DNA of 36,397 nt. Source: Gemmatimonadota bacterium (lineage in GTDB: Bacteria > Gemmatimonadota > Gemmatimonadetes > Palauibacterales > Palauibacteraceae). Numbering within the stretch: position 1 is the stretch's first letter; the number at the start of each line of letters is the position of its first letter. Shown one piece after another: positions 13,325 through 31,739 of this stretch. Made by a program: the position numbers and the translations under genes. The notes under the pieces are model-generated. The model worked only from the letters and a program-made list of their open reading frames with translations, ran no database searches and was not told the DNA's origin. The stretch is taken from assembly GCA_039656095.1 (NCBI GenBank), contig JBDHMQ010000002.1, forward strand, positions 1 to 36,397, given 5' to 3'.

Positions 13325-13945
13325 TCAATTTCCCTCCAGCCGCCGACTCCCATCTCCCTGGTAGACATACTCAATCGTCATGCATCCGGGCTCGGGTCCC
13401 GGACAGTAGTAGCCTAGTATGCGAAGCTTTGCGTATCGGCCGTCGGCGGTGCGCAGAACGAATGTCACCGGGTCCGGTTCAAGCAAATGGGAGAAAAAAT
13501 CGTACGAGTACCACTCGTCGAGAACAGCACTGACGGTGTCCCCGCCGGGGGTTACCCGGCTTGAAGCGTAGCCGTCAGTCGGTGCCTCGAAAACTTGTTC
13601 GAACGGAATTTCGAGGCGAATCACGCCAGCGTTGCCGCTGAATCCGTCGCCTCCGTTCACGGCCAGGCGATGACGCCGAACCCCGATATCCCAGGCATTA
13701 CCAGTAGTCTCGATCTGGCCGGTCGCGAGATCCAACAGGGTCCAACGGTCAGCATTCCTAGCGTCCAAAGTAACCGTGTCCGGGCCGGAAACCTGCGCCG
13801 GCTGGACTCGCGGTTCGAGGTCAGAAAGCCCGAACACCGGGGGATCGGGTTGCCTGAGTGAACCCACCACAATGGTGGCGACGGTGGCGACGAATAGTCC
13901 GCCGAGAACCAGCAGCCAAACGGGAGTAGTTTCGGTCGGCGTCAC
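13325..13945 (-). CDS. hmuY: HmuY-family heme-binding protein, N-terminally membrane anchored
   Basis: WDIGVRR...NGG, WYSYDFFSHLLEP, FVLRTADGRYAKLRILGYY are typical HmuY-fold motifs. Confidence 0.85.
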   Translation of the reverse strand: MTPTETTPVWLLVLGGLFVATVATIVVGSLRQPDPPVFGLSDLEPRVQPAQVSGPDTVTLDARNADRWTLLDLATGQIETTGNAWDIGVRRHRLAVNGGDGFSGNAGVIRLEIPFEQVFEAPTDGYASSRVTPGGDTVSAVLDEWYSYDFFSHLLEPDPVTFVLRTADGRYAKLRILGYYCPGPEPGCMTIEYVYQGDGSRRLEGN

Positions 13946-14143
13946 CTACTTGCGGTGCAAAATTCGATTGAGATTTGCCAGGTAAACGCCCAGTCCGATT
14001 GCCAGCGTCGCGAATACAATTGCGATCACAAGTGCACCTGAGCCGGATCCGTTCGAATAGGCAACGAATTCCCAGCCGGCGTATCCAAGGCAAAACAAGA
14101 TTGCTACTGAAATCAGAAATCTGTGAAATCCAATGATTCCCAC
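13946..14143 (-). CDS. Small 2-TM hypothetical membrane protein
   Basis: GGAGG before GTG 14143; FHRFLISVAILF...; its stop abuts the hmuY start. Confidence 0.7.
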   Translation of the reverse strand: MGIIGFHRFLISVAILFCLGYAGWEFVAYSNGSGSGALVIAIVFATLAIGLGVYLANLNRILHRK

Positions 14144-14186
14144 GGCGCCTCCACTGGACATTGGGGACTATGCTCGTGCGCCAATC

Positions 14187-14192
14187 TATAAT
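14187..14192 (+). promoter_or_regulatory. Possible -10 element for the Mrp operon
   Basis: Perfect TATAAT in the divergent intergenic region; the -35 (GGGACT) is weak. Confidence 0.4.
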
Positions 14193-14255
14193 CCTGCGAG
14201 GCCGCGGGGCGAGTCGTTCGTTGCCAAACGTTCCAGGCAGAAAGACCTTTGGCCG

Positions 14256-15140
14256 ATGACGCTCAAGCACCGGACCTATTCAGAAGTCACCGGCGCCGAT
14301 ACCTCCCGGATGGTCGAACAGGTAGCCGCGCAGCACGCTCGCGTCGCCGAACGATTGGATGGCGTAAAGGCGTGCATCGCGGTGATGAGCGGGAAGGGTG
14401 GTGTCGGAAAGAGTCTGACAACGGCGGCTCTTGCTTCCGCTTGTGCGAATCGCGGGCTCACCGTCGGCCTGCTTGATGCCGACCTCGTCGGACCCAGCGC
14501 CGCCCGGCTGTCGGGCGTACAGGTGACCGGCCTTACGGTGGATGAGAACGGGCTCGATCCGGCAATATCGCCGACTGGAGTTCGAATCATGTCGATGGAA
14601 TTGCTGCTTGAAGATGGCGCGCCACTGGCGTTCAGGCAGCCCTCGTCTGAGAGTTTCGTATGGCGGGGGGCGCAGGAACGTAGTGCGCTGCGTGAGTTTC
14701 TGGCCGATGTCCGATGGGGGAACCTCGATCTGCTGCTGGTCGACCTGCCGCCGGGTACGCAGCGACTCACAGACCTCGACGAGCTGCTACCCCGTCTGGA
14801 CGGATTGATCGTGGTCACGATTCCCTCGGCGGCTTCACAGGCGGCGGTGGGACGCTCGATGGAGCTGGCCAGGCAAAGGGACATTCAGATTCTTGGTATC
14901 GTAGAAAACATGGCCGGTTACGCCTGTGCGGATTGCGACGAGATTCAGCCACTGTTTCCGGGCGACGCCGGAGAGCAGCTTGCGTCCGCGTACGATACAG
15001 TTCTGCTCGGACGGATTCCGTTTGACGCTGAAGCCGCGGTTCACGCGAACACGGGTGCACTGGATCAACTAATGAACCACACGCTGGCGGGTGAAGCGAT
15101 CGACGCTGTCGCGCTGCAGCTCCTGGAGGCGATCGCATGA
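14256..15140 (+). CDS. apbC: Mrp/NBP35/ApbC-family P-loop ATPase (Fe-S carrier)
   Basis: SGKGGVGKS, DADLVGPS, WRG, DLPPGT, ENM...CADC; start ATG 14256. Confidence 0.9.
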   Translation: MTLKHRTYSEVTGADTSRMVEQVAAQHARVAERLDGVKACIAVMSGKGGVGKSLTTAALASACANRGLTVGLLDADLVGPSAARLSGVQVTGLTVDENGLDPAISPTGVRIMSMELLLEDGAPLAFRQPSSESFVWRGAQERSALREFLADVRWGNLDLLLVDLPPGTQRLTDLDELLPRLDGLIVVTIPSAASQAAVGRSMELARQRDIQILGIVENMAGYACADCDEIQPLFPGDAGEQLASAYDTVLLGRIPFDAEAAVHANTGALDQLMNHTLAGEAIDAVALQLLEAIA

Positions 15141-15601
15141 AATTTCTCTGCGTCGAATGCGACGAGCAGATGATCTTCGAAGAGCGCAACCTGCCGGGAG
15201 ACGGTACACTGGCCGCCGCTTTCCGCTGTCCTGGCTGCGAGCGCATTGTGGCAATGCTCACCAATCCCATGGAGACGCAGCTCGTCTCTGCTCTGGGCAT
15301 CAAGATCGGTGGCAGTGAAGTACCTGGGCAGCCGTTGGAGCTCGTGCGTAGCGAAATGGTCGGCGGTCGCGAGGACGCATTCGTGGACACCGAACCGACA
15401 GCCGCGGCGAATGTCTCTAAAGGCTCACCCGGCGTTGTCTGGAGTCTGGCGGCCGTAGAGCGTCTTGAGAGCGTTCCTCGCTTCGTGCGGGGCATGGTAA
15501 AGCGGATATATACGGACTACGCGCAGGAAAACGGCATTTCCCAGATCACACCAGACGTCATGGACCGCGCGCGCAGCGACCTCGGGCTTGAGGGCATGTG
15601 A
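15137..15601 (+). CDS. CxxC...CxxC metal-binding ribbon plus PCP_red (BchB C-terminal-like) domain protein
   Basis: CVEC...CPGC; C-terminal WSLAAVERLESVPRFVRGMVKRIYTDYAQENGISQITPDVMDRAR. Confidence 0.85.
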   Translation: MKFLCVECDEQMIFEERNLPGDGTLAAAFRCPGCERIVAMLTNPMETQLVSALGIKIGGSEVPGQPLELVRSEMVGGREDAFVDTEPTAAANVSKGSPGVVWSLAAVERLESVPRFVRGMVKRIYTDYAQENGISQITPDVMDRARSDLGLEGM

Positions 15602-15864
15602 GCGCTGAGGCCACGGATGACAGGGAGATCGTGCGCGTCGTTGGTGAGCTCACGATCACGATCGACCGTCTCCTGTGTGTCGGATTCGGAGATTGCATCG
15701 ACGAGGCCCCCGTGGCGTTTGAATTCGACGATGAGGACATAGCGATCCTGACACACCCTGAAAAAGTAGATCGGGAGCACCTTCTGCGAGCCTGCGAGTC
15801 CTGTCCCGTAGACGCGATCACGGTACTGGACGCGGCCGGTTTGACGATCGTCCCGCAGGACTAG
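15598..15864 (+). CDS. Single-cluster ferredoxin (probably [3Fe-4S])
   Basis: IDRLLCVGFGDC...ACESCPVDAI; the second cluster Cys position is Phe. Confidence 0.88.
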   Translation: MSAEATDDREIVRVVGELTITIDRLLCVGFGDCIDEAPVAFEFDDEDIAILTHPEKVDREHLLRACESCPVDAITVLDAAGLTIVPQD

Positions 15865-15873
15865 CGGCCGGCC

Positions 15874-16782
15874 ATGTCCAGTCGAATAGCGTTCGCAGAG
15901 AATCTGAAATTCTCCTACGGGACAGGTCCCGCAGTTCTCGATGATGTTTCACTGGAATTGCGATCCGGTGAAATCCTGGGGCTTCTCGGGCTGAATGGCT
16001 CGGGAAAGACGACGCTGCTCCGGCTTCTATCGCGACTCCTTCAGCCGACCAGCGGCCAACTGGGCGCAGCCGAAGCACCCGCTGTCGTGTTTGACCGGGC
16101 CCCGTTTCAGGCAAGTCTGTCCGGTCTGGAAAATATTGCTCTGGCGCTTGCTCTTCGCGGAGTGCGTGGAGATGAAGCGAAGACGGCCGCAAGCGCCTGG
16201 TTGCAGAGATTCGACCTGAGCGCCGATGAGCACCGACCCGTCGGTGAGTACTCCCTGGGCATGCGCCGTCGCCTGGGCCTGGCGGAAGCGTTTGCGTCCG
16301 AACGATCGTTGTGCTTGCTCGATGAGCCTACCCTCGGGCTGGATCCCGCCGGCCAGCAACTCCTCGGCCAGGCCCTGGCCGCCGGCGCTACGGCGGGACG
16401 CTCGGCGATCATTGCGACCAACGATGCGAACTTTGCCCAGCGAGTCTGCCATCGCGTACTCCTGCTTCATGACAGCCGTGTGCTCGCCGAAGGCACGCCT
16501 GACTCACTGATCACGTCGTTGGACGCACCGACGATCATCGAGGTTGTGACGGCCGGCGGTTTGCCCGTGGACAATCCACCGGAAGGACTATCTGTCGTCG
16601 CGTCAGCAGACAATCGCCTCACATTGTCAGGGACGGATTGCTCGGGTCGTCTTCCCGATGTGTGCCGATGGATTGAGGCCAGCGCGGGTTCGGTCCAGAC
16701 GATCAGAGTCCGGGAGCCTGATCTCGCCGATGTGTTTCTTCGTCTTGCCGGCCAGCCGCTAGTCACGGAATCTGAATCATGA
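15874..16782 (+). CDS. ABC-2 type exporter ATP-binding subunit
   Basis: GLNGSGKTT, YSLGMRRR, LLDEPT; C-terminal REPDLADVFL domain. Confidence 0.9.
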   Translation: MSSRIAFAENLKFSYGTGPAVLDDVSLELRSGEILGLLGLNGSGKTTLLRLLSRLLQPTSGQLGAAEAPAVVFDRAPFQASLSGLENIALALALRGVRGDEAKTAASAWLQRFDLSADEHRPVGEYSLGMRRRLGLAEAFASERSLCLLDEPTLGLDPAGQQLLGQALAAGATAGRSAIIATNDANFAQRVCHRVLLLHDSRVLAEGTPDSLITSLDAPTIIEVVTAGGLPVDNPPEGLSVVASADNRLTLSGTDCSGRLPDVCRWIEASAGSVQTIRVREPDLADVFLRLAGQPLVTESES

Positions 16783-17507
16783 CGGGTGCGATCTGGCGCC
16801 TGACCTGGGCGCTGGCCGTTCGACGACGACGTCTTCTGATCTGGAATTTTCTCGTGCCGATTCTGCTCCTCGTCCCCGTCATGACGAGTGCGGCCGCTGC
16901 ACAGCATCGAGCCGTGGTTGTGGCCGTATTCGTGATGTTCTTTGGGGTTTATGGCAGCTGTATTCCGCTGATTCGAGACTGAATGTCCGGGTGGGTGGAA
17001 AAAATTGGGCTCACCGGATTCGGGGGACGGCGCTGGCTGGTCGAGCGAACCCTCGCATCGACAGCCGTCGACTGGATGCAATTACTCCCCGTGAACCTGC
17101 TGCTGGTTCTGCTGTTAGGGATCCCAACCGATGCAGCATCCGCCATTCTCGTGGCAACTCTGCTCGCGTTGCTGTTTGCAAACCTGCTGGGCGTTCTGGT
17201 CGCCGCGTTCGTCCGAGCTCTAGGAGAGGCAGCGCTCGGATGTGCCGTGCTCTCGTTGTTTGCGCTTCACCTGGCCGGTGTGTTTCGCACGCCGGATCCC
17301 GGATCTCTGGGGGCGGCAGCCGAAGCGTGGAGCCCGCTGCGGCCGCTGCACGATTCCTGGGTGGGCGCTCTTCTGTCGGGAGGCTCCGAGGTCCTCTGGG
17401 CCAAGTGGATGATTCCGGTGGCTGCTCTGGGCGCGTTGCTGGTGCTGGTCGCATTTGCCGGGGATCGACTGGCGGCCCGAATTGCGGCGACCGATTCGGG
17501 CGCCTGA
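16779..17507 (+). pseudogene. ABC-2 type permease interrupted by an in-frame TGA (nonsense, read-through or sequence error)
   Basis: ORFs 16779..16982 and 16983..17507 are in the same frame, separated only by TGA; together they give a ~6-TM permease ending WSPLRPLHD. Confidence 0.7.
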
Positions 17508-17533
17508 TTCCGGATTTTACCGCCCACGGCCTG

Positions 17534-17865: not shown

Positions 17866-18573
17866 TCAAGCGCCGCCGAACTTGATCATCGTCATCGCCG
17901 GCAGCAGGTTGATCATCGTGTGCACGAGCACGGGTGCCACCAGGTTTCGTCCGCTACGCTCATACACGGCTCCCAGAACCAACCCCCCGATGACGCCCTG
18001 ACCCATCGCCGAGCCTATGGCGGGGCCTAACTGGCCATGCGTCGGCCAATTGGGATTCAAGTAGGCATACGGGATATGGTACATCCCGAACAGGACAGAC
18101 GTCACGACAACAGCCCACAACCTATTCTGAAACCACGCTCCGAGCCGTCCCTGGATGATGCCACGGAAGAAGAACTCTTCCGTGAAGGCGGCCGTCGCCA
18201 ACAAGAGCACGAAAGCGATCGGAAGCAGGAACAGGGCCTTGCCCGACCTGATCAACGACCAGATTGCCTCTGCCCGGTTCGACATGAACAGCTGCGCTAC
18301 ACTGAGTGCCAGGCCGAGAATTGCGGCCCACCAGAGGCCTGTCCGCCATGTCTCTCTCCGGAGTCCAATGGAAGCCAGTGTATCTCGAAACGTACCGTTC
18401 TTCTTGAGTTGAACCACGTGGAACAACGCTAACGGCAGGATGACAAGCGACAGCCAATGTTTCGCCTCGTTCTCGGGATAAAAGAACAGATAGATGAAGT
18501 ACAAGGCGAAATATGCGAGACTCAAGGCTGCTTCAACTCGATAGTGAGCGGATCTGACTTCTGAATCGGACAT
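17866..18573 (-). CDS. CPBP/Abi family intramembrane metalloprotease (type II CAAX)
   Basis: EEFFFRG, FGMYH and HTMIN motifs; multiple TM helices. Confidence 0.92.
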
Positions 18574-18657: not shown

Positions 18658-18687
18658 TTGACGCGATATGCGGGGGCCTCATATATT
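18658..18687 (+). promoter_or_regulatory. Putative sigma70 promoter for the USP-rSAM-oxidase operon
   Basis: TTGACG, 18-bp spacer, TATATT, in an AT-richer intergenic region. Confidence 0.55.
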
Positions 18688-18859: not shown

Positions 18860-20974
18860 ATGTACCGTCAGGTACTCGTTCCGGTCGACAATTCAATTCA
18901 TTCTGATCTGGCAATGGATCGTGCCCTTGAGATCTGCTCGCGCAGCGGGGGACGCATCACGGCCACTCACGTGTATGCCGCCCGGCTACACGACATTCGC
19001 TTCCGCCAACTTGAAGTCGGTCTTCCGGCGCAATTCCAGGAGCCGCAGGAAATTCGCCGACAGAGGAAGATCCACGACAAGCTGATCGAGAAAGGGCTGC
19101 AGCTGATCTCGGACAGCTTTCTGGATGAGGTGGACAAGAAGGCGAAGCTTGCTGAAATCCCAATGACCCGGCAGCTGCTCGAGGGCATCCACTTTGAAGA
19201 GGTCGCCAGGGAGGCCAACAAGGGAGCCGGACGGTTACCAAGCCTGATCGGGTTTGATGCCAACATCGCCAGCAAGTACGACGGCGGTGACAACGTGCGC
19301 AGCGATGTGCAACTCACCGATGACGGCCGAATCATCGCCGAGGACGAGGATTCCGACGAAAAGCTCGCGGGCCGGAGCGATCGCGACTACGACCTGGTCG
19401 TCATGGGCGCGTATGGAATCGGCCGTCAGCCGCTCAGCCGAATCGGCGGAATGTCGGGCCGTGCACTGCGAAAGATCGAGAAAGACGTACTGATCGTGAG
19501 AGACGAGCGGCCGCTCGACGGCGGCTCACTCATGGTCTGTATCGACGGCTCCGCTTACTCCTACAAGTGCATGCGCATCGCCCTGGAACTGGCGCAGGAA
19601 TATGGCTGCAAGTTGTTCGTCGGGAGCGCTTTCGACGTCGAGTATCACCATGCCGTGTTCAACAACATCAAGGACGTTCTGTCTGTCCAGGCTTCAAAAG
19701 TGTTCAAGTTCGAGGAGCAGGAAGCCCTCCACAACAACATCATCGATAAGGGACTGTTGCGGCTGTGCAAGGCGAATCTGAAGCGTGCTGCCGTGATGGG
19801 AACCGAGTATCCGGACGTCGAAATCGAGACACAGATCCTGGTCGGCAAGCCGTTCCAGGTGATCCTGCAATGGGCAGAGGAAGAAAAGCCGTCACTGCTG
19901 GTTCTGGCACGACACGGATCCCATCGTATCGAGGGCACGGAGCTGGGATCGCAGGCCGAGGAAGTGGTGCGTGCCGTTGATGTCAACACGCTGCTTGTCG
20001 GGATCACGGACGTGCGTCCTGATGACATTCCGTGGATCGAAGAAGATGGTGAGACAGGCCTTGAATGGACTCCGGAGGCAGAAGTCCGCATCCTCCGCGT
20101 GCCGCCGTTCGCGCTTGGCATCGCCCGAAAAGCGGTCGAAGAGTATGTGCTGGAGCATCACGGCCCGGGCAGTCGCTATGCCGCCGCGTTCGTCGACGGG
20201 CCCAGCAAGATGGAAGTGCTGGCCGAAGGAAATAGCGCCTCGGTCAACGGATCCTCAACCGAGACGGCGGACGTTTCAGCTGAAACGCCCATCGTAACAC
20301 CCGAAGAGCTCCCGATCGTGACGAGTGAACGTCTCGACGAGGCGATCACGAAGCTCTTGCCGACCCACATGCAGCTGATCATGGGCATTGGTACCGCCGA
20401 AGAACTGGTCCTGGCCGAGTTGAAGGCGGAGCAGGCGATGGAGCGCACGGTCGTCAAGGGAATCGACGCCGACCCGGAGCCGGAGACGGCGATGGTCGAA
20501 ACGAAGTGCCCGGTCACGGGCCAGGCCCAGACCCGGGAGCGCACCGAGACTGATCCGGTCGAGTGGACACTTGAAGCATTCGCTCGCCTGAAGGCCGTGC
20601 CGCTTATTGCCCGTCCACTCGCCAGGAATACGGTCGAGAAATTCACCCGAGAAGCTGGTATGTGGCGGGTGACAACAATGGTGATGGACGACAACAAGCA
20701 GGCAATGATCGACGCGGACACATTCGATGTCGACACGATGCTTGTGATGTTTAAGGAATTGCAGACGAAGCAGATTCAGGCCGCAGCAGAGGGCGTAGAC
20801 GGAATGACGCCGGAGATGCGAAAGTTCATTGAAGAGGCGAAGGCGAGCGGCGTTACTCGTTGTCCGATACGCGACATGGAAGCCCAGGCGGAGAAGTGCC
20901 CGGTCGACTTCAAGACGGTTACGCCGGAAGAAGCAAGACAGGCGATGGAACAGTTCATGGCGGAGTCGGACTAG
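18860..20974 (+). CDS. Multidomain universal stress protein (USP-USP, 2x PCP_red-like, 3 Cys-Pro motifs)
   Basis: GAGGTGG RBS before ATG 18860; VLVPVDNS...DLVVMGAYG and MVCIDGS...LLVLARHG USP domains; WTPEAEVRILRVPPF and WTLEAFARLKAVPLI; KCPV, RCPI, KCPVD. Confidence 0.88.
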   Translation: MYRQVLVPVDNSIHSDLAMDRALEICSRSGGRITATHVYAARLHDIRFRQLEVGLPAQFQEPQEIRRQRKIHDKLIEKGLQLISDSFLDEVDKKAKLAEIPMTRQLLEGIHFEEVAREANKGAGRLPSLIGFDANIASKYDGGDNVRSDVQLTDDGRIIAEDEDSDEKLAGRSDRDYDLVVMGAYGIGRQPLSRIGGMSGRALRKIEKDVLIVRDERPLDGGSLMVCIDGSAYSYKCMRIALELAQEYGCKLFVGSAFDVEYHHAVFNNIKDVLSVQASKVFKFEEQEALHNNIIDKGLLRLCKANLKRAAVMGTEYPDVEIETQILVGKPFQVILQWAEEEKPSLLVLARHGSHRIEGTELGSQAEEVVRAVDVNTLLVGITDVRPDDIPWIEEDGETGLEWTPEAEVRILRVPPFALGIARKAVEEYVLEHHGPGSRYAAAFVDGPSKMEVLAEGNSASVNGSSTETADVSAETPIVTPEELPIVTSERLDEAITKLLPTHMQLIMGIGTAEELVLAELKAEQAMERTVVKGIDADPEPETAMVETKCPVTGQAQTRERTETDPVEWTLEAFARLKAVPLIARPLARNTVEKFTREAGMWRVTTMVMDDNKQAMIDADTFDVDTMLVMFKELQTKQIQAAAEGVDGMTPEMRKFIEEAKASGVTRCPIRDMEAQAEKCPVDFKTVTPEEARQAMEQFMAESD

Positions 20975-20977
20975 ATC

Positions 20978-24051: not shown

Positions 24052-24052
24052 T

Positions 24053-24832: not shown

Positions 24833-25653
24833 TGACCCAACCAGGCAATTCACCCCGAGGCCTGAAGCATCCGTTCTGGCAGGCTGCCCTGCTGCTCGTC
24901 CTGTCATTTCTCCTGATCCGGTATGGAATCGCGATACTTCCGCCGCTGGTCGGCGTGGAGAGTGCACCCGTACCTGCATCCGTCGTCCTGCAGTTCATGG
25001 TGACTGCCCTGGTGGGTGTGCTGCTGTACGTGAGTGCTGATGAGACGCGCTGGACACAGTTCAAGCAGCCGATTCACGGCGTGGCCGTCGACGCGGACAA
25101 AAAGCTACTGCGCACCGCCATGTTGGTTGGCATTCCGGTGTTCGTCGGCTTCCTGACGTATCAGCAGGTTAGTGCCAGCGTCGGAGCTCCACCGGCCCTG
25201 CGCTCCATACATCCAGCGCCGCCCAATCAGGTCACGTTCCGTGGGTCGTCGATGCGCCTCGCCGGTCTAGAGAATCCACTGAGGACGACCGGCGACATGA
25301 CAGTACACTTGCAGACGGGAAAGACGGTCTACGTCCGTAACTGCATGCCATGCCATGGCGACCTCCTGGATGGTAGAGGGCACTTCGCCCGTGGATTCAA
25401 TCCCGTCCCGGCCGATTTCACTAGCAATGGGACGATAGCCCAGCTTACCGAGAGCTATGTGTTCTGGCGGATCGCCAAAGGCGGCCCTGGCCTGCCGAAG
25501 GAAGGGACGCCCTGGGACTCTGCGATGCCCGCCTGGGAAGATGTTCTGACGGAGAACGAAGTCTGGTCGGTCATCCTGTACCTGTATGACCAGACCGGCT
25601 GGTCGCCTCGCACCTGGGAAGAAGCGGAAGAGGGCGAAGGGGGTGAACATTGA
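24832..25653 (+). CDS. Membrane-bound (3 TM) mono-heme cytochrome c
   Basis: CMPCH, SAMPAW; three N-terminal hydrophobic helices. Confidence 0.9.
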   Translation: MTQPGNSPRGLKHPFWQAALLLVLSFLLIRYGIAILPPLVGVESAPVPASVVLQFMVTALVGVLLYVSADETRWTQFKQPIHGVAVDADKKLLRTAMLVGIPVFVGFLTYQQVSASVGAPPALRSIHPAPPNQVTFRGSSMRLAGLENPLRTTGDMTVHLQTGKTVYVRNCMPCHGDLLDGRGHFARGFNPVPADFTSNGTIAQLTESYVFWRIAKGGPGLPKEGTPWDSAMPAWEDVLTENEVWSVILYLYDQTGWSPRTWEEAEEGEGGEH

Positions 25654-27197
25654 ATACCGTCCGCCTGAGCCGCGTCGTCGCGGCCGTTCTCGGCCTGTCT
25701 GTATTTCTGGTGCTTCCTGTTGCCGCGCAGGACGTGGATAATGGCGAGCTGATCTACGACAAGTGGTGTGCCGAGTGCCATGGTGTGGAGGGGCGCGGCG
25801 ACGGTCCGGCTGCTGACTATATGCTCCCAAGGCCCCGCGACTTCGTGCAGGCCCGATACCAGATCCGCACCACGGCCAACGGCGAATTACCTACCGACGC
25901 AGACATCCTTCAAGTGCTTCAGCTGGGTATGCCGGGCACGACCATGCCGGCTTGGCCAAATCTCAACGATACGGAACGCCGTGATGTCATAGCGTTCATC
26001 AAGAGTTTTTCCCGCTTCTTTGACGGGTCGGATCCACAGTTGCCAGAGGTCGTGTCCGACCCGGGCGGTGGAGCCGATGCCATCGAGTCCGGCCGAACCG
26101 TTTTCGAAACGCTCGAGTGCTGGAAGTGTCACGGAGAATCGGGACGAGGCAGTGGCCAGTCGACAGCGACGCTCGAGGATTGGCGGGAATACCCGATTCG
26201 GGCAGCTGACCTGACGGAACCCTGGATGTTCAACGGCGGCGGCAGCGCTGACGCTATTTACCTTCGGATGATGACAGGCCTGGACGGCACACCCATGCCT
26301 GCCTACAGCGACGCCGTCGATTCGGAGGTCGTGAGCCCGGAAGAGCTGTGGAACGTAGCGCACTACGTAGCGAGCCTGGCCCCGACGCTTGCGCCACGAA
26401 CTGCCGACTTCATCTCCGCGTCCCGCGTCGAGGGAGAGCTGCCGACGGCACCTGATGACGATGTCTGGGCTTCAGCAAAAGCGTTCTATGTTCCGCTCGT
26501 GGGCCAGGTGATCCGCCCGCCGCGAAATTTCGCCCCGACGGTAGACGGGATGTGGATTCGCGCCCTGCACGACGGTTCAAGCGTAGCACTGCACCTGAGT
26601 TGGGGCGATCCGTCCAACAGCCCGGACTCGTCCTGGACCGAGTGGCAGACGAAGGTCGTAGATGCCATGACGCCGGACGGGGCAACGCTGTCGCCCACCG
26701 ATCCGATGACAGACGGAATCGCCGTGCAATTTCCGGCGAGCATCCCGGACGGTACCGAACGCCCGTATTTCTTGATGGGCGAGGCAAATGATCCGGTAAC
26801 GCTATGGACGTGGGACAGTCGATCTGGGGTGGCAGAAGCCAGTGGCCGCGGTCTCGGCCACATCGACGGACTCACGGGAAGCGATCTTAATGCCGAGGCG
26901 CGCTGGAACGAGGGTCACTGGGAGTTGATGCTGACCCGATCAATCGTTTCGGAAGCTGAGGGCGCGATCGATCTGGCCGAAGGCGTTGTGATTCCTGCCG
27001 CGATGTTTGCATGGGACGGTTCGAGCGCCGAGTCGTCGGACCGAGGATCTGTAAGCAGCTGGATCTATTTGTATCTCGAGGAGCCATCTTCTTCCAATGT
27101 CGTCATTGCTCCGATCGTCGCAATCCTGCTCAGCGGAGGGCTGTTGCTCCTGCTGGTCCGGGGTGCGCAGAAGCGCGCGGCGACCGTAGAAATCTAG
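25650..27197 (+). CDS. Di-heme cytochrome c fused to an EB_dh/DOMON-like heme-b domain and C-terminal TM anchor
   Basis: Signal peptide; CAECH and CWKCH; WGDPS...DGIAVQFP...PYFLMG...AWDG pattern of ethylbenzene dehydrogenase gamma-type domains. Confidence 0.87.
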   Translation: MNTVRLSRVVAAVLGLSVFLVLPVAAQDVDNGELIYDKWCAECHGVEGRGDGPAADYMLPRPRDFVQARYQIRTTANGELPTDADILQVLQLGMPGTTMPAWPNLNDTERRDVIAFIKSFSRFFDGSDPQLPEVVSDPGGGADAIESGRTVFETLECWKCHGESGRGSGQSTATLEDWREYPIRAADLTEPWMFNGGGSADAIYLRMMTGLDGTPMPAYSDAVDSEVVSPEELWNVAHYVASLAPTLAPRTADFISASRVEGELPTAPDDDVWASAKAFYVPLVGQVIRPPRNFAPTVDGMWIRALHDGSSVALHLSWGDPSNSPDSSWTEWQTKVVDAMTPDGATLSPTDPMTDGIAVQFPASIPDGTERPYFLMGEANDPVTLWTWDSRSGVAEASGRGLGHIDGLTGSDLNAEARWNEGHWELMLTRSIVSEAEGAIDLAEGVVIPAAMFAWDGSSAESSDRGSVSSWIYLYLEEPSSSNVVIAPIVAILLSGGLLLLLVRGAQKRAATVEI

Positions 27198-27238
27198 GAT
27201 TTTCAGAAGCAAACCTTAGCAACAAACAGGAGGCCAGG

Positions 27239-28096
27239 ATGTCATTCAGGGACTCAACGTGGGTCGCTCTTTTCGCGGCCGTCGCTCTCGGCTGTGGTGG
27301 CGGAGACGGTGACGCGGGCAGCAGTGATGGTGGTGGTGATGCCGGTAGCGATGCACCGGCAGCAGCGCCTGCTGTCGATCCGGCCATAGCGGCCACGGTC
27401 AGTGGTACGGTGAGCTTCACGGGCACCGCACCGGCGGGCACGGCGATCGATATGTCCGAGGAGCCGGCCTGCGCAGAAAAGCACACGACCACGCCGATGA
27501 TCCAGCCCGTACGAGTCGGTGACGGGGGCGGACTTGGCGATGTGTTTGTCTACGTGAAGGAAGGTCTCGGCGACATGACGTTTCCGACGCCGGCAGCCGC
27601 AGCCGTTCTCGATCAGAACGGCTGCGAGTACGCACCGCATGTGGTCGGAGTGATGGCGGGCCAGGATCTCAACATCAGGAACAGCGACCCTGTGCTCCAC
27701 AACATCAACACGCAGCCCGAGATCAATCGCGGCTTTAACGTCAGCCAGCCGCGTGCCGGCATGGAGTCTACCCGGACGTTCCGGGATGCCGAGGTCATGA
27801 TCCCGGTCAAGTGCGACGTCCACGGCTGGATGAACGCGTACATCGGCGTGACAGACAATCCGTACCATGCCGTGTCGTCGGCAGACGGCAGCTTCACGAT
27901 CAGCGGTCTTCCGCCGGGTGAGTATGTGATCGAGGCCTGGCATGCTACGCTCGGCGTATCCACGCAAACCATTACGGTTGGGGACGCGGAGACTGGTACG
28001 GCGGACTTTTCGTTCAGCGAAGACATGGCTGGCGGGCCGGTTCCGATGGGCGAAACCGTCGATCTGGCACACCCGGCAGGCCACACGGCGGGCTGA
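27239..28096 (+). CDS. Lipoprotein with cupredoxin-like and carboxypeptidase-regulatory-like domains
   Basis: AGGAGG RBS; lipobox ALGC; LHNIN...CDVHGWM type-1 copper ligand set; DGSFTISGLPPGEYVIEAWH. Confidence 0.85.
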   Translation: MSFRDSTWVALFAAVALGCGGGDGDAGSSDGGGDAGSDAPAAAPAVDPAIAATVSGTVSFTGTAPAGTAIDMSEEPACAEKHTTTPMIQPVRVGDGGGLGDVFVYVKEGLGDMTFPTPAAAAVLDQNGCEYAPHVVGVMAGQDLNIRNSDPVLHNINTQPEINRGFNVSQPRAGMESTRTFRDAEVMIPVKCDVHGWMNAYIGVTDNPYHAVSSADGSFTISGLPPGEYVIEAWHATLGVSTQTITVGDAETGTADFSFSEDMAGGPVPMGETVDLAHPAGHTAG

Positions 28097-28149
28097 CCGC
28101 TGCAGGACAGCTTGTTCCGAGCAGCAATCTTTTAGAGAGAGAATACGCC

Positions 28150-28833
28150 ATGGATTGGTCGTTTCCGATCAACATCTCCACGCAGGGCGTGGGGATCGAC
28201 AACATGTTCTGGTTGATCTTCTGGATCACCGGCGCCGCCTTCTTAATCGTAGAAGTCGGCGTGCTGTGGTTCCTGTGGAAATACCGGGCTCGCGACGGCC
28301 ACAAGGCCAGATACACGCATGGTCATCTGGGGGCGGAAATCATCTGGACCACGATTCCCGCGGTCACGATGGTCGCCCTGGGCATCATGAGTGGCCAGAT
28401 GTGGGCTGATATTCGCAGCCCGAGTTCGTTCCCGGAGAATGCGCTGACCATAGGCGTCAGCGCGAAGCAGTTCGAATGGAACGTCACGTATCCCGGCGCC
28501 GATCGTGTGCTCGGTAACGAAGACGATTTCACGATCAGGAATCGATTTGAGTTTCCTGTTGATGAACCGGTCATTGTTCGGCTCGAGTCCGAAGATGTCA
28601 TCCATTCCTTCTTCATTCCGGAGATGCGGGTGAAGCAGGACGCCGTACCCGGCATGACGATCCCCATCTGGTTCGAAGCGACCCAGACCGGGGAATTCCA
28701 GATAGCGTGTGCGGAACTATGTGGCCTTGGCCATTACCGCATGAGAGCCCGTGTCGTCGTGCACGAGGCGGATGCATTCAATCGCTGGTACGACGAACAC
28801 ACGGGCGCGGCTCAAGTCGCCGCTGCCGATTAA
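28150..28833 (+). CDS. coxB: Cytochrome c oxidase subunit II
   Basis: Two TM helices; DVIHSF and CAELCGLGHYRM CuA motifs; no fused cytochrome c. Confidence 0.96.
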   Translation: MDWSFPINISTQGVGIDNMFWLIFWITGAAFLIVEVGVLWFLWKYRARDGHKARYTHGHLGAEIIWTTIPAVTMVALGIMSGQMWADIRSPSSFPENALTIGVSAKQFEWNVTYPGADRVLGNEDDFTIRNRFEFPVDEPVIVRLESEDVIHSFFIPEMRVKQDAVPGMTIPIWFEATQTGEFQIACAELCGLGHYRMRARVVVHEADAFNRWYDEHTGAAQVAAAD

Positions 28834-28851
28834 CTGGAGGAAGTTTCGCGT

Positions 28852-30606
28852 ATGGCGACGATGATGGCCGAGCCTACGGGCGTTCCGGTGCGGGTGGAAG
28901 AGCACCCGCAGTCCTTTATACGGAAGTACATTTTCTCGACTGATCACAAGATCATCGGGATACAATTCCTGTTTACATGCTTGTTCTTCCTGCTCATCGG
29001 CGGGTTGTTGGCAGTGATGCTTCGCTTCCAGCTGGGGTTTCCGGGCGCAACGATGCCAGGCGGCAGCCTGCTGCCCGAGACCATGGCACCCGACGGAATC
29101 ATCCTTCCGGAGTTCTACAATTCGCTGGTCACCATGCATGGCACATTCATGGTGTTCTTTGCCGTCATGCCCCTGCTCGTGGGCGTGTACGCGAACTACT
29201 TGATTCCCGTCCAGATCGGGACGCACGACATGGCATTCCCGCGACTCAACATGATGTCGTACTGGATGTTCCTGGTGTCGGGCCTGATCATGCTGTCCAG
29301 CTTCTGGGTAATCGGAGGAGCCTCGGCGTCGGGATGGACGCAGTACGCCCCGCTCAGTGCTTCTCCGGAAGCGTCCGGCGTATCCACTGGCCAGATCTTG
29401 TGGATCGTCAGTATTGCCATATTCGCTTTCAGTTCGCTGCTGGGTTCGGTCAACTACATCACGACGATCATCAATCAGCGTGCGCCGGGAATGACCTGGC
29501 TCCGCCTTCCGCTGGTGATCTGGACCCTGTTCATCACGGCAATACTCGGATTGCTCGCCATCCCTGTGCTCACTGCGGCGTTGATCATGCTGCTGTTCGA
29601 CCAGACGATCGGCACGACATTCTTCCTGCCGGATACGGGTGGCCAGCCTTTGCTCTGGCAGCACCTGTTCTGGTTCTTCGGCCATCCTGAGGTATACATC
29701 CTCATTCTTCCGGGCATGGGATTCGTGTCCGAGATCATCGCGAACGGGTCGCGCAAACCAATCTTTGGTTACAAGAGCATGGTTTACGCGATTATCGCGA
29801 TCGCGGGTCTCGGGTTCATCGTCTGGGGTCACCACATGTTCCAGTCGGGGATGAATCCGGCGCTCGGGATGAGCTTCATGATTACGACCCTGATCATCGC
29901 GGTGCCTTCGGCGATCAAGGTGTTCAACTGGATGGGTACGATGTGGGGCGGATCGATTCGCTTTCACACGCCGTTTCTGTTCGCCGTCGGCTTTGTGATG
30001 CTGTTCGCGATCGGTGGATTCAGCGGCATTTTCATGGCCTCGTCGCCGGTCGACATCTTCATTCACGACACGTATTTCATTGTCGCGCATATTCATTATG
30101 TGCTGTTCGGCGGGAGTCTGTTCGCCATCTTCGGCGCGATTTACTACTGGTTCCCCAAGATGTTCGGGCGGATGATCAACGAGACGGCCGGGAAGATCCA
30201 CTTTTTCCTGACCTTCGTGCTGTTCAACCTTGTATTCTTCCCGATGCATGGTCTAGGAATGGCCGGGATGATGCGTCGCATCTACGAGCCAGCGCAGTAC
30301 GAGCATCTGTCGGGAATCCAGGATACAAACACGATGGTTTCGTGGGCCGCATTCGGCCTGTTCGCTTCCGGGCTGTACTTCATGGTTCTGTTCTTCTGGA
30401 GCCTGTTCAAGGGTAAGCCGGCACCGGAGAATCCCTGGGAAGCCACAACGCTGGAATGGACTCTTCCGTCGCCGCCCATGCACGGCAACTGGAAAGAACT
30501 TCCGACGGTTTATCACGGTCCGTACGAGTACAGTCATCCGGATATGGAAAAAGACTGGCTGCTGCAGAACGAGAGGCCAGATGTCGTTTCGCCGGCACAC
30601 CACTGA
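28852..30606 (+). CDS. coxA: Cytochrome c oxidase subunit I, type A1
   Basis: TDHK, MHG, DMAFPRLN (D channel), GHPEVY, WGHHM, AIKVFNW (K channel), VAHIHYV, GMMRR. Confidence 0.98.
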   Translation: MATMMAEPTGVPVRVEEHPQSFIRKYIFSTDHKIIGIQFLFTCLFFLLIGGLLAVMLRFQLGFPGATMPGGSLLPETMAPDGIILPEFYNSLVTMHGTFMVFFAVMPLLVGVYANYLIPVQIGTHDMAFPRLNMMSYWMFLVSGLIMLSSFWVIGGASASGWTQYAPLSASPEASGVSTGQILWIVSIAIFAFSSLLGSVNYITTIINQRAPGMTWLRLPLVIWTLFITAILGLLAIPVLTAALIMLLFDQTIGTTFFLPDTGGQPLLWQHLFWFFGHPEVYILILPGMGFVSEIIANGSRKPIFGYKSMVYAIIAIAGLGFIVWGHHMFQSGMNPALGMSFMITTLIIAVPSAIKVFNWMGTMWGGSIRFHTPFLFAVGFVMLFAIGGFSGIFMASSPVDIFIHDTYFIVAHIHYVLFGGSLFAIFGAIYYWFPKMFGRMINETAGKIHFFLTFVLFNLVFFPMHGLGMAGMMRRIYEPAQYEHLSGIQDTNTMVSWAAFGLFASGLYFMVLFFWSLFKGKPAPENPWEATTLEWTLPSPPMHGNWKELPTVYHGPYEYSHPDMEKDWLLQNERPDVVSPAHH

Positions 30607-30631
30607 ACGCACCCGGAACGAGAGAGTCTGA

Positions 30632-31234
30632 ATGAGCAGTCACGCTATGGAGGCCGAAGCGAGCCGGTTCGAGCCGGCCACTTTTCAGGTCAATGACAAG
30701 AAACTTGGGATGTGGATCTTTCTTGCATCCGAGGTGATGTTCTTTACCGGTCTGATCGGTGCCTACATCATCCTGCGCTGGGGCGCGGCCAGTCCGTGGC
30801 CAGTGCCAGGCGAGGTGCTGAACGTGCCGATAACAGCAGGAAATACGTTCATCCTCATCTGCTCGAGCGTCACCATGGTCAAGGCGTTTGCGGCCATCGA
30901 AGAAGGCAACCAGAAAATGCTCAAGGTCTGGCTGCTGGCGACTGCATTCATCGGTGCAAGCTTTGTCGGGGTACAGGTGTACGAGTACACCGAGCTCATA
31001 CATCACGGTTTCCTTCCGAGCTCGGGGCTATACGGTTCGGCGTTCTTTACGATGACCGGCTTTCACGGACTGCACGTTACGATCGGCGTCCTGTGTATAC
31101 TCTGGGTCGCGATGAAGGCGTTTCGTGGCAGCTACTCGCAGGCAGATCATCAGGGCGTTGAAATCATCGGTTTGTACTGGCATTTCGTAGATCTCGTGTG
31201 GATCATCCTGTTCACCATTGTCTACCTGATCTGA
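30632..31234 (+). CDS. coxC: Cytochrome c oxidase subunit III
   Basis: MWIFLASEVMFF, TGFHGLHV, YWHFVDLVW. Confidence 0.96.
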   Translation: MSSHAMEAEASRFEPATFQVNDKKLGMWIFLASEVMFFTGLIGAYIILRWGAASPWPVPGEVLNVPITAGNTFILICSSVTMVKAFAAIEEGNQKMLKVWLLATAFIGASFVGVQVYEYTELIHHGFLPSSGLYGSAFFTMTGFHGLHVTIGVLCILWVAMKAFRGSYSQADHQGVEIIGLYWHFVDLVWIILFTIVYLI

Positions 31235-31243
31235 GGCACGGAT

Positions 31244-31516
31244 ATGAGCGCTGAAGGCAAAAAGAAACCCAGGTACATGGCGGTGTTCGGCGGGCTCGCG
31301 GCACTCACTGCAATCGAAGTAGCGGTAGCGTTCATGGGCTTCGAGCGGCGAGCGACCGTGCTACTTCTGATCGGACTCGCGGTCTACAAGGCGTTGCTGG
31401 TCGCCATGTATTTCATGCATTTGAAATGGGAGACGCGGTCGTTGAAGATTTTGGCGGTGGCACCTCTTCTTCCTGCCGCGATCATGGTGATCGTCGTTTT
31501 GATGGAGAACTTCTAG
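31244..31516 (+). CDS. ctaF: Cytochrome c oxidase subunit IV (COX4_pro)
   Basis: LTAIEV, KALLVAMYFMHLKWE. Confidence 0.9.
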   Translation: MSAEGKKKPRYMAVFGGLAALTAIEVAVAFMGFERRATVLLLIGLAVYKALLVAMYFMHLKWETRSLKILAVAPLLPAAIMVIVVLMENF

Positions 31517-31517
31517 C

Positions 31518-31739
31518 TTGACGACGATGTTTTTCGTCGAAGTGGTGGGATACGTATTTCAGGCGACACCGAGTTGTCCGGGCTGTATCGAAACGTCGAG
31601 CCCGACCATGATGTCTGGAATGCTTATCGGACTGGTGCTCCTCATGGCAGCGCCCTTCCTGGTGATATTCGGTATCGGAGGCGGAATCTTTCGGGCCCGC
31701 CGCCGAGCACTTGCCGAAGCCGACGAACGTGAAGGCTGA
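31518..31739 (+). CDS. Small CxxC membrane protein at the end of the cox operon
   Basis: TTG start 1 nt after the ctaF stop; CPGC followed by a TM helix and a basic tail. Confidence 0.65.
   Translation: MTTMFFVEVVGYVFQATPSCPGCIETSSPTMMSGMLIGLVLLMAAPFLVIFGIGGGIFRARRRALAEADEREG

Follow-up and report, generated by a model that had tools for sequence, protein, structure and literature searches.

According to the text of Murali, Gennis and Hemp (bioRxiv 10.1101/2021.01.16.426971), the OR-N family of the cytochrome bd superfamily comprises proteins with the CydA fold that keep the first four helices and the equivalent of His19, have about 14 helices, and lack both the quinol-binding loop and CydB. 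They are encoded alongside proteins that supply electrons in place of quinol, one of them a periplasmic cytochrome b, and in the published passages we draw on they are viewed as oxygen reductases whose donor is not quinol. PMC12342949 and PMC9040806 discuss the NIDE0901-like or 'TO_1' bd-like clusters, which also contain a periplasmic cytochrome b, as putative terminal oxidases in Nitrospirota.

Here, we analyse a locus from a Gemmatimonadota bacterium (GCA_039656095.1, contig JBDHMQ010000002.1), where a protein of this type is encoded together with an aa3 oxidase and a candidate maturation set. The window, i.e. the whole stretch of DNA that was analysed, is 36,397 nt long, and the genome is an 85%-complete MAG. 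The OR-N family, which includes this bd-like protein, has been described before, and it is the genomic context that is new; our literature search found no description of such an island. The genes are the following.

13325-13945, minus strand: HmuY-like protein (PF14064, 49 bits)
14133-15140, plus strand: Mrp/NUBPL-type Fe-S cluster carrier P-loop NTPase (PF10609, 208.7 bits)
15137-15601, plus strand: four-Cys ribbon (CxxC at 5 and 31) carrying PCP_red at its C-terminus (PF08369, 46 bits)
15598-15864, plus strand: small single-cluster ferredoxin (Fer4_13, 38.7 bits)
15874-17507, plus strand: ABC ATPase (15874-16782), then a weak ABC-2 permease (Pfam)
17866-18573, minus strand: CAAX protease gene
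18860-20974, plus strand: tandem USP with two PCP_red stretches (Usp 105 bits, three stretches; ORF open from 18803)
20978-22258, plus strand: radical SAM protein (rSAM) of the AhbD/NirJ clade with SPASM and PCP_red domains (Radical_SAM 88.5 bits, PCP_red 54.7 bits)
22255-24051, plus strand: CydA-like membrane protein, bd-like of the OR-N type (PF01654, 72.5 bits)
24053-24832, plus strand: dihaem cytochrome c anchored by an N-terminal helix (Pfam cytochrome c domains; CxxCH at residues 62 and 184)
24829-25653, plus strand: monohaem cytochrome c with an N-terminal membrane domain (CxxCH at residue 172)
25650-27197, plus strand: dihaem cytochrome c (CxxCH at 40 and 157) with an EB_dh domain (haem b, 53 bits) and a C-terminal helix
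27236-28096, plus strand: type-1 copper (cupredoxin) lipoprotein with an N-terminal signal ending in LGC and a C-terminal beta-sandwich
28150-28833, plus strand: CoxB (COX2, COX2_TM; CuA motif)
28852-30606, plus strand: CoxA, haem-copper oxidase subunit I (COX1, 502 bits)
30632-31234, plus strand: CoxC (COX3, 100.6 bits)
31244-31516, plus strand: CoxIV (COX4_pro, 58.6 bits)
31518-31739, plus strand: 73-aa CxxC membrane peptide that belongs to no Pfam family

ORF and domain searches agree on all the genes listed in the initial annotation and on their arrangement as a co-directional block with overlapping or short junctions. From the USP gene through the CxxC peptide the gaps are 3, -4, 1, -4, -4, 38, 53, 18, 25, 9 and 1 bases, and from these junctions alone we infer that the block is probably co-transcribed. 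A USP start at 18860 is probable, since tblastn finds matches in other genomes only from about residues 18-20 onwards. A promoter-like site is located ahead of this gene at 18658-18687, though shuffled sequence yields such sites at least as often. Further upstream, the Mrp and Zn-ribbon-PCP_red genes overlap by 4 bases. Between the USP gene and the upstream genes from Mrp to ABC lies the minus-strand CAAX protease gene, which is found in 0/44 related loci. The "shared domain" said to link these upstream genes to the main block is PCP_red (PF08369).

The bd-like protein is a member of the OR-N branch without CydB and without a Q-loop. Its PF01654 match spans only profile positions 2-248 of 418, and the NCBIfam CydA equivalogs score 26-29 bits against cut-offs of 968-1025. 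The model (pLDDT 85.3) has 13 long helices and an N-terminal helix, and the best 10 matches of a fold search are all CydA chains. No CxxCH is present in the protein. The Q-loop is absent: the Pfam and PDB alignments end ahead of it, and the model helix 223-252 runs straight into 256-294. H61 is aligned with His19/21, E148 with Glu107/108, and H229 with a conserved His of 9r2g chain A, which we take to be the haem b558 ligand; across 38 sequences, each of the three reaches at least 90% conservation. At the Glu99/101 position (E. coli Glu99) there is a tyrosine, Y141, also at least 90% conserved in these sequences, which makes the O2 site non-canonical. The protein shares with canonical CydAB[X] the subunit I fold and the equivalents of His19, Glu107 and, presumably, the b558 histidine, whereas it differs in the missing Q-loop, the tyrosine, the cytochrome c partners and the lack of any CydB found in its own 85%-complete MAG.

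Homologues named Nitrospira sp. and Ca. Manganitrophaceae give full-length alignments with the protein, with 37-40% identity. Unlike the OR-N proteins of Nitrospirota, the island proteins form a clade (at least 60% identity, four phyla) always accompanied by the same three cytochromes c and a cupredoxin, and tied to an aa3 operon and the PCP_red/rSAM set. In 4/5 Nitrospirota-type metagenome loci, none of the island neighbours is found within 10 kb, and in the fifth, L128, they occur only beside a second, closer bd-like gene. The passages compared here from the OR-N and Nitrospirota publications mention neither an aa3 pairing nor radical SAM genes; the operons themselves are described in a figure and supplements of the OR-N publication.

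The five CxxCH motifs noted earlier are distributed 2+1+2 over the three cytochromes c. Residues 28-244 of the EB_dh cytochrome match PDB 6h5l_B with 177 bits, and the DMSO reductase type II gamma subunit model scores 91 bits, below its cut-off of 170. In 3/10 long homologues of the bd-like protein a dihaem cytochrome c is fused to the C-terminus, which argues for cytochrome c as the redox partner. Such fusions resemble OR-C, i.e. CydA with a fused C-terminal cytochrome c; however, in the window the cytochrome c is a separate gene, and the bd-like protein has about 14 helices and no adjoining second CydA, against the 8 helices and the OR-C1b partner given for OR-C in the published excerpts. 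The monohaem cytochrome c and the dihaem/EB_dh protein form one fused product in three loci. The initial annotation had proposed modelling the bd-like protein with the cytochromes, and with the monohaem cytochrome c the complex model scored 0.77 compared with 0.00 for the best control, with at least 49% of contacts in agreement between runs and a partner pLDDT of at least 76. That mark is attained by 58/80 solved complexes and 2/110 mismatched pairs, calibration counts that apply only approximately since the model was built from our own alignments. The gene fusions and the complex model both support a single predicted bd-like/cytochrome c complex.

The initial description of the next protein as a Cu lipoprotein is borne out. 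Its His155, Cys193, His196 and Met199 are invariant in 23/23 aligned homologues, and a fold search with its model (pLDDT 85.3) gives amicyanin, pseudoazurin and plastocyanin as best matches (E 5e-6 to 4e-4). The cox genes that follow encode an ordinary A-family aa3 cytochrome c oxidase, whose CoxB has the CuA motif and no CxxCH, i.e. it lacks a fused cytochrome c as claimed. The layout is similar to that of ACIII-aa3 systems, with a multi-haem membrane-anchored cytochrome c module directly upstream of cox and a tethered blue-copper or cytochrome carrier in between. Unlike in those systems, the island has no homologues of ActB, ActC, ActD or ActF and its membrane core has the CydA fold.

The island content is conserved in two gene orders and in at least four phyla. 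For Gemmatimonadota we compared 64 loci, counting each gene among the loci with enough flank. Here the order is Mrp, Zn-ribbon-PCP_red, ferredoxin, USP-PCP_red, AhbD/NirJ-like rSAM-PCP_red, bd-like, three cytochromes c, cupredoxin lipoprotein and CoxBAC-IV, and the core genes are present in between 36/37 and 56/57 loci. Mrp is found in 40/40, Zn-ribbon-PCP_red in 41/41, USP in 44/44, rSAM in 56/57, CoxB in 44/44, CoxA in 43/43, CoxC in 39/39 and CoxIV in 36/37. The cytochromes are equally constant in Gemmatimonadota and in other phyla: dihaem 54/54 and 15/15, monohaem 52/52 and 13/13, dihaem/EB_dh 46/46 and 12/12. For the cupredoxin the counts are 45/46 and 10/11, and the cox genes are present in 8/10 loci of other phyla. 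The ferredoxin occurs in all Gemmatimonadota loci (40/40) and in 0/9 elsewhere. In the second order, seen in 4/4 contig-resolved genomes of Rokubacteria, Methylomirabilota and Chloroflexi, the bd-like gene, cytochromes, cupredoxin and cox are followed on the same strand by USP-rSAM-(ribbon)-Mrp. Mrp lies next to the rSAM in these phyla. In the NC10-type loci L084 and L097 the accessory set lies directly ahead of the bd-like gene.

The initial annotation had let its proposal depend on the accessory genes co-occurring with the bd-like gene across genomes. They do so by synteny and also in whole genomes: PCP_red is found in 41/41 bd-like-positive compared with 5/110 bd-like-negative Gemmatimonadota genomes, and in 63/63 compared with 6/38 in a Methylomirabilota sample, although these figures overstate functional dependence because related genomes are not independent and clustered genes are inherited together. 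The PCP_red set occurs without a bd-like gene in six Methylomirabilota genomes and in one Gemmatimonadota genome, G057, where the contig is cut within the rSAM gene. Of the neighbouring genes named initially, Mrp, the ribbon protein, ferredoxin, USP and rSAM are constant parts of the island. HmuY (17/38 loci) and the ABC exporter (12/41) are not, and the CxxC peptide does not appear to be conserved either, with 4/37 loci by tblastn, a search of low sensitivity for so short a query.

PCP_red has four matches in the whole genome, all inside the window, and among 14 control genomes it is found only in Synechococcus. In BchB, according to the family description, this domain is part of a tetrapyrrole enzyme. 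By family models, the rSAM is nearest to the tetrapyrrole-modifying AhbD/NirJ2 enzymes. It matches the AhbD and NirJ2 models over their full length (positions 1-339 and 1-325) with 276 and 277 bits, compared with 132 bits for the mycofactocin maturase and 108 for PqqE, and shares with AhbD and NirJ/NirJ2 the rSAM cluster motif and SPASM. However, these scores are about half the curated cut-offs (500), and the protein differs from those enzymes in its extra C-terminal PCP_red and in its place in a respiratory island rather than in a haem or haem d1 pathway. The Radical_SAM/SPASM/PCP_red architecture is common to all of the best 120 homologues listed. The Mrp protein scores 202 bits with MrpORP and 135 bits with ApbC, both under the cut-offs.

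We propose, at about even chances, that these genes form one conserved respiratory island, made up of a bd-like complex reducing O2 (or NO), an aa3 oxidase and a tetrapyrrole maturation set. The first module would combine the OR-N-type protein with three anchored cytochromes c and a blue-copper lipoprotein, carrying five c haems and one EB_dh-type b haem. With the quinol loop lost, electrons would enter the bd-like protein periplasmically from the c and b haems and the cupredoxin instead of from quinol. O2, possibly NO, would most likely be reduced at the retained di-haem site, providing a second, non-pumping exit. This exit would draw on the same electron donors as the aa3 oxidase encoded directly behind it, and the two would probably form one physical assembly. 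In the third module (Mrp, ferredoxin and three PCP_red proteins including the AhbD/NirJ-like rSAM), the rSAM, supplied with clusters by Mrp and with electrons by the ferredoxin, may modify or deliver an iron tetrapyrrole for the complex, the PCP_red domains holding it. The island would supplement a chain in which ACIII is already present rather than take the place of complex III. It offers a concrete route to testing what the poorly understood bd-like enzymes do.

Possible, but on balance unlikely, is that the bd-like protein and its cytochromes c act as a new quinol:cytochrome c (or cupredoxin) oxidoreductase, passing electrons through their c and b haems and the cupredoxin to the CuA of aa3, i.e. 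an ACIII-like role on a CydA scaffold, perhaps in a supercomplex. The tethered cupredoxin between the module and cox, with cox fixed downstream, fits such a donor-to-aa3 arrangement equally well, and in the published excerpts ACIII genes are known ahead of oxidase genes. Five c haems, a b haem and type-1 copper make a longer wire than the input of an oxidase needs, and the replacement of Glu99 by Tyr points the same way. However, the Q-loop is the only known quinol site of the CydA fold, and the residues of the di-haem site are retained in the protein that lacks it. Two loci, L084 (with full flank) and the Myxococcota locus L092, lack cox genes within 10 kb of the module, which shows that it need not be coupled to aa3. 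The relation to other quinol-oxidising complexes argues against it as well. The window contains no cydB, bc1, ACIII, ctaA or SCO, as the initial annotation stated, but elsewhere the same genome has a Rieske protein and cytochrome b, two ActD/ACIII loci and CtaA. ActD is present in 41/41 bd-like-positive Gemmatimonadota genomes (one, G132, has a complete ActA-F locus), and cytochrome b is equally frequent in bd-like-positive (24/41) and bd-like-negative (64/110) genomes. The anticorrelation with bc1 and ACIII proposed earlier is not seen, and we reject the module as a replacement for either.

The accessory genes might also have nothing to do with a cofactor of the bd-like protein, the rSAM being a plain oxygen-independent haem b synthase (AhbD) and the USP proteins stress regulators of the operon, or the set serving aa3. 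We consider this improbable. Some database sources call homologues of the rSAM 'AdoMet-dependent heme synthase', and in the four other-phylum genomes the set stands behind cox and not beside the bd-like gene. Neither ChdC nor HemF was found in the 85%-complete MAG, where the rSAM is the only strong AhbD-like gene, so in this genome it may have a housekeeping haem role. Across the phylum, the rSAM is found solely where the island is, in 41/151 sampled Gemmatimonadota genomes, and is therefore not the general haem synthase. The AhbD score well below the cut-off, the PCP_red domain that three island proteins share and no other protein of the genome has, and the position of the set in L084 and L097, the former without nearby cox, also speak against it. 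Very improbable is a role of the rSAM as a peptide or protein maturase, with the CxxC peptide or a subunit of the complex as its substrate. It has a SPASM domain, among solved structures SkfB (77 bits) and PqqE (73.5 bits) are closest to it in sequence, and the peptide gene closes the operon in the window; against this, the NirJ2 and AhbD models score far above those of the maturases, the peptide is detected in just 4/37 loci, and the PCP_red of BchB belongs to a tetrapyrrole enzyme.

A second, paralogous bd-like module is located on contig C15 of the same genome, with the accessory genes not beside it. Near the window's island, HmuY is a variable neighbour, on the same strand in only three loci, as are the ABC ATPase and the ABC-2 permease (11/43 loci), the frame of the latter being interrupted by an in-frame TGA at 16980-16982.

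The window is contig C2 of a MAG of 2.31 Mb in 347 contigs, 85% complete, and the proteins and loci that match it most closely carry names that place it in Gemmatimonadota. All genes named in the initial annotation were recovered in an ORF listing with family scans. The genes considered here as an island are the following.

14133-15864: Mrp, ribbon-PCP_red and ferredoxin genes, with 4-base overlaps at each junction by their coordinates
18860-31516: USP-PCP_red and radical SAM-PCP_red (rSAM) genes, the bd-like/cytochrome c module, the cupredoxin gene and the aa3 (cox) genes; within this part:
22255-24051: bd-like protein
24053-24832: dihaem cytochrome c
24829-25653: monohaem cytochrome c
25650-27197: dihaem/EB_dh protein
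27236-28096: cupredoxin-like lipoprotein

From the USP gene to the gene of a 73-aa peptide the junctions are 3, -4, 1, -4, -4, 38, 53, 18, 25, 9 and 1 bases. Neither promoter-like sites (3, and a mean of 5.7 in shuffled sequence) nor terminator-like sites (16 and a mean of 14.4) are enriched. A minus-strand gene for a CAAX/Rce1-like protease, 17866-18573, lies before the USP gene and splits the accessory set into two halves; it is found at that place in 0/44 related loci and was dropped as a part of the island. The frame of an ABC-2 permease (16779-17507, plus strand) has an in-frame TGA at 16980-16982, leaving 67 aa and 174 aa; a pseudogene, two separate genes or an error in the assembly could each account for this.

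The bd-like protein matches PF01654 with 72.5 bits (cut-off 26.2), covering only the first 248 of 418 CydA positions, and it scores 26-29 bits against the curated CydA equivalogs, whose cut-offs are 968-1025. Its AlphaFold model (pLDDT 85.3, pTM 0.85) has 13 long helices and an N-terminal helix, and its ten best Foldseek matches in the PDB are all CydA chains, with E-values from 1e-8 to 1e-5. According to the model, a helix at 223-252 is followed after a three-residue gap by a helix at 256-294, which leaves no space for a Q-loop; the alignments to Pfam and PDB stop at about residue 300, before the Q-loop. In alignments to solved CydA sequences H61 corresponds to His19/21 (His21 of 5doq), E148 to Glu107/108, Y141 to the Glu99/101 position and H229 to a conserved histidine of 9r2g chain A, which we take to be the haem b558 ligand. 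We likewise assume that His19, Glu99, Glu107 and His186 belong to particular haems or channels. Across 38 diverse homologues, conservation of H61, E148, H229 and Y141 is 90% or more at each position. The protein contains no CxxCH motif.

A canonical CydAB quinol oxidase has a CydB partner and a Q-loop with quinol-binding residues, whereas the bd-like protein has no Q-loop. CydB (PF02322) was not found in the 85% complete MAG, and the window contains no second CydA-like gene. More than 7,800 homologues were returned in one search, and full-length ones at 37-40% identity are named Nitrospira sp. and Ca. Manganitrophaceae. According to the parts of the preprint by Murali, Gennis and Hemp cited here (bioRxiv 10.1101/2021.01.16.426971), the OR-N family of the cytochrome bd superfamily has no quinol site and is often alone in its operon, and the subfamilies N1/N2 have 14 helices. 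The bd-like protein fits this family by its predicted properties: a CydA fold, the first four helices, a His19 equivalent, no Q-loop and about 14 helices. The full-length Nitrospira and Manganitrophaceae homologues point indirectly to the OR-N clade as well. The core enzyme family is consequently probably one already described, though uncharacterised. Clusters of the Nitrospirota type, with a bd-like protein and a periplasmic cytochrome b, are discussed as the terminal oxidase 'TO_1' in the relevant sections of PMC12342949 and PMC9040806.

The three cytochromes c contain exactly five CxxCH motifs (2+1+2), as initially counted. In three of ten long homologues of the bd-like protein, cytochrome c domains that align with the dihaem gene of the window are fused at the C-terminus, and three loci encode the monohaem cytochrome and the dihaem/EB_dh protein as a single fusion. 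When the bd-like protein was modelled together with the monohaem cytochrome, the complex scored 0.77 and the best of three controls 0.00. This mark was reached by 58/80 solved complexes and 2/110 mismatched pairs, counts which calibrate our score only roughly as we used our own alignments. At least 49% of contacts are shared between runs, and the partner pLDDT is at least 76. The modelled interface joins residues 316-384 of the bd-like protein, including the region of the conserved P363, E372 and H381, to residues 34-75 of the cytochrome. The model supports binding between the two proteins; a solved structure of a bd-type protein with a cytochrome c is not known to us. Residues 28-244 of the EB_dh protein, its dihaem part, match PDB 6H5L chain B with 177 bits. 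This is a Kuenenia HAO entry that lists chain B under the title 'conserved hypothetical cytochrome protein', presumably the dihaem partner of the HAO-like enzyme.

The lipoprotein, first described as a copper protein, is a predicted cupredoxin: His155, Cys193, His196 and Met199 are invariant in 23/23 homologues. A sequence search of solved structures gave no match, but a fold search with the model (pLDDT 85.3) found amicyanin, pseudoazurin and plastocyanin as best matches, with probability 1.00. It has both the fold and the His, Cys, His, Met ligand set of type-1 copper cupredoxins, i.e. a predicted copper site.

Downstream, subunits I, II (with CuA), III and IV of a predicted A-family haem-copper aa3 oxidase are all encoded (COX1 502 bits, COX2 55.6, COX3 100.6, COX4_pro 58.6). 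CoxB carries the CuA motif H-x34-C-x-E-x-C-x3-H-x2-M and no haem c site, in agreement with the initial annotation. Three related loci from Rokubacteria and Methylomirabilota (L119, L121, L122) differ in that CoxC-like genes occur twice, CoxIV is followed by another cupredoxin-like gene, and further genes spanning 2-4 kb separate CoxA from CoxC.

A paralogous copy of the module is present on contig C15 of the own genome (L017):

C15, 8210-16840: two cupredoxin-like lipoproteins, a cytochrome c/beta-propeller protein, a bd-like protein of 664 aa, two cytochromes c and a dihaem/EB_dh protein

Its bd-like protein is 48% identical to that of the window. It has neither rSAM nor USP genes upstream and no accessory genes alongside; the contig ends 232 bases later. 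The same paralogue type is found in a Myxococcota locus (L092), divergent and adjoining the orthologue.

To follow the island through other genomes, a pattern scan with one genome per species was used, in which 597 of 600 candidate stretches were confirmed as relatives. The best 80 of the 597 loci (64 Gemmatimonadota, 16 from other phyla) were analysed, a set that leans towards close relatives. All window proteins were searched by tblastn; matches with coverage below 0.5 were excluded, and a gene was counted only in loci with enough flank. In the Gemmatimonadota loci the accessory set is nearly invariant: Mrp 40/40, ribbon-PCP_red 41/41, ferredoxin 40/40, USP-PCP_red 44/44 and rSAM-PCP_red 56/57. 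The same holds for the three cytochromes (54/54, 52/52 and 46/46), the cupredoxin (45/46), CoxB (44/44), CoxA (43/43), CoxC (39/39) and CoxIV (36/37). All these conserved genes are on the strand of the bd-like gene. HmuY, the ABC exporter and the CxxC peptide had also been proposed as parts of the system, but they are not conserved and were dropped: HmuY is found in 17/38 loci, mostly on the opposite strand, the exporter genes in 12/41 and 11/43, and the 73-aa peptide in 4/37.

In the loci from other phyla the three cytochromes are present in 15/15, 13/13 and 12/12, the cupredoxin in 10/11 and CoxB, CoxA and CoxC in 8/10. USP and rSAM are upstream in only 2/13. PCP_red was found in 5/5 other-phylum genomes tested, and all four contig-resolved genomes (two Rokubacteria, one Methylomirabilota, one Chloroflexi) have cox followed immediately, on the same strand, by USP-PCP_red, rSAM-PCP_red and Mrp. 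In two NC10-type loci (L084, L097), USP, rSAM, Mrp and ribbon immediately precede the bd-like gene; cox genes are absent within 10 kb in L084, whose flank is complete. Comparing gene orders across phyla, the three modules thus travel together in at least two orders.

Whole genomes agree with the proposal that the accessory genes co-occur with the bd-like gene. Of 151 Gemmatimonadota genomes, 41 carry a bd-like orthologue (72-100% identity) and 46 carry PCP_red; the latter is present in 41/41 positives and 5/110 negatives. The positive genomes usually have four PCP_red matches. Four of the five PCP_red-positive, bd-like-negative genomes have one or two high-scoring matches in frames of BchB size. 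The fifth (G057) carries the accessory genes on a contig of 9.6 kb whose end falls within the rSAM gene. Among 101 Methylomirabilota genomes, 63 are bd-like-positive and 69 PCP_red-positive, with PCP_red in 63/63 positives and 6/38 negatives; these counts include three unpublished genomes (G184, G202, G213) positive in both, without which they are 60/60 and 6/38. Two phyla show this pattern, and it persists through the change of gene order; in such counts, however, relatedness makes the genomes non-independent, and genes in one cluster are passed on jointly.

The domain noted as shared between the accessory proteins is PCP_red (PF08369), which in the DPOR subunit BchB is C-terminal and acts as a tetrapyrrole lid. 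The own genome has four copies, all inside the window. In BchB, nitrogenase-like catalytic domains precede PCP_red; these are absent from the three island proteins, which have the C-terminal domain alone in common and match BchB models only at profile positions of about 445-535 of 512-535.

The rSAM protein has the radical SAM core (PF04055, 88.5 bits) with its cluster motif and the auxiliary-cluster domain SPASM (PF13186, 30.2 bits), as radical SAM/SPASM enzymes do, with CxxC at residues 19, 302 and 311. It matches the NirJ2 and AhbD models over the full length with 277 and 276 bits, about half of the cut-offs of 500 and well above peptide maturases. Judged by its sequence, it is a relative of the AhbD/NirJ2 clade and not a member by the NCBI criterion. 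The rSAM+SPASM+PCP_red architecture is common to all of the best 120 homologues listed; they are named 'radical SAM protein' or, in one source, 'AdoMet-dependent heme synthase'. Since the gene is confined to the island-bearing genomes (41/151), it is not the general haem synthase of the phylum. ChdC and HemF were not found in the 85% complete MAG, so a local housekeeping role in haem synthesis may still apply to rSAM. A radical SAM/SPASM enzyme needs several Fe-S clusters, and Mrp-type proteins carry Fe-S clusters according to their family names.

The island had been proposed to replace bc1 or ACIII, with anticorrelation expected between them, and we reject this. Cytochrome b is equally common with and without the bd-like gene, in 24/41 positive and 64/110 negative Gemmatimonadota genomes. 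The ACIII marker ActD is present in 41/41 positives and in 142/151 genomes overall, including two unpublished ones (G062, G102) that are ActD-positive and bd-like-negative. An NrfD gene of ActC size is present in each of five nearly closed genomes that are negative for cytochrome b, and a full ActA-F locus was verified in one of these (G132). ACIII is built from ActB (molybdopterin-like/Fe-S), ActC/ActF (NrfD) and ActD; no such family is found among the island proteins, and genuine ACIII loci lie on contigs other than that of the window. The own genome itself encodes a Rieske/cytochrome b/multihaem c locus, a second cytochrome b, two ActD loci and CtaA.

The observed composition and linkage, with the fusion and model support for one complex, suggest how the system might work. 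As there is no Q-loop, the bd-like protein would receive its electrons from the haems and copper on the periplasmic side. The retained equivalents of His19, Glu107 and the b558-type histidine suggest that the di-haem site works and that O2 (or NO) would be reduced there. In the literature OR-N enzymes are assumed to reduce O2, and the bd-like proteins of Nitrospirota are assumed to be the main oxidase there. We give about even chances to two oxidases, bd-like and aa3, that share donors and assembly. The order module-cupredoxin-cox fits such a shared-donor assembly and a relay to aa3 equally well. A relay, in which the module passes electrons to aa3 as a quinol:cytochrome c version, lacks a quinol site, however, and ACIII is universally present; we find it rather doubtful.

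For the accessory set, Mrp and ferredoxin may serve rSAM, and the PCP_red domains may hold a tetrapyrrole. The fullest version, in which the AhbD/NirJ-like enzyme makes or inserts a haem derivative with PCP_red proteins as carriers, Mrp as cluster donor and ferredoxin as reductant, and in which the complex forms an obligate supercomplex with aa3, appears unlikely. If it were true, the haem derivative would be what lets a bd-type protein without CydB and Q-loop work, and the island would be a new branched or relay terminal respiratory segment in Gemmatimonadota, Methylomirabilota/Rokubacteria and Chloroflexi.

In the literature we found no measured electron donor, cofactors or reaction for the widespread OR-N bd-like proteins. 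Nothing was found on the invariant three-cytochrome/cupredoxin subunit set or on a fixed aa3 pairing across phyla, on which the OR-N operon figure and supplements of Murali et al. may bear. A PCP_red/AhbD-like maturation set was not found either, with PCP_red papers judged by titles and abstract openings; the same supplements may bear on it. The cofactor part has a real chance of being new biology. For purification and structural studies the island supplies a fixed set of subunits, and it has a fixed partnership with the well-understood aa3 oxidase. The dedicated rSAM/PCP_red set offers a handle on the need for a special haem, which could explain why such enzymes resisted heterologous expression, and would give PCP_red domains their first context-based role outside chlorophyll synthesis. 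The labels 'cytochrome ubiquinol oxidase subunit I' and 'heme synthase' for these genes are probably wrong.

Four further features of the window were noted.

31986-32948, plus strand, 3' of the cox genes: membrane protein of 320 aa, about ten hydrophobic segments by a crude hydropathy scan
32964-34772, minus strand: ORF of 602 aa with no Pfam match at E <= 0.001, adjoining the gene of an OmpA-family outer-membrane protein (34620-36233)
4641-6332, minus strand: B12-binding radical SAM protein with DUF4070, unrelated to the island rSAM
7165-10687, minus strand: molybdenum enzyme of the xanthine dehydrogenase/aldehyde oxidase family, large subunit 729 aa, with smaller ORFs downstream

The 320-aa membrane protein matches no Pfam family, and an Atlas search gave unnamed clusters only, the nearest from Binatota, Gemmatimonadota and Methylomirabilota. 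Of the 13 loci with enough flank, 8 contain it.
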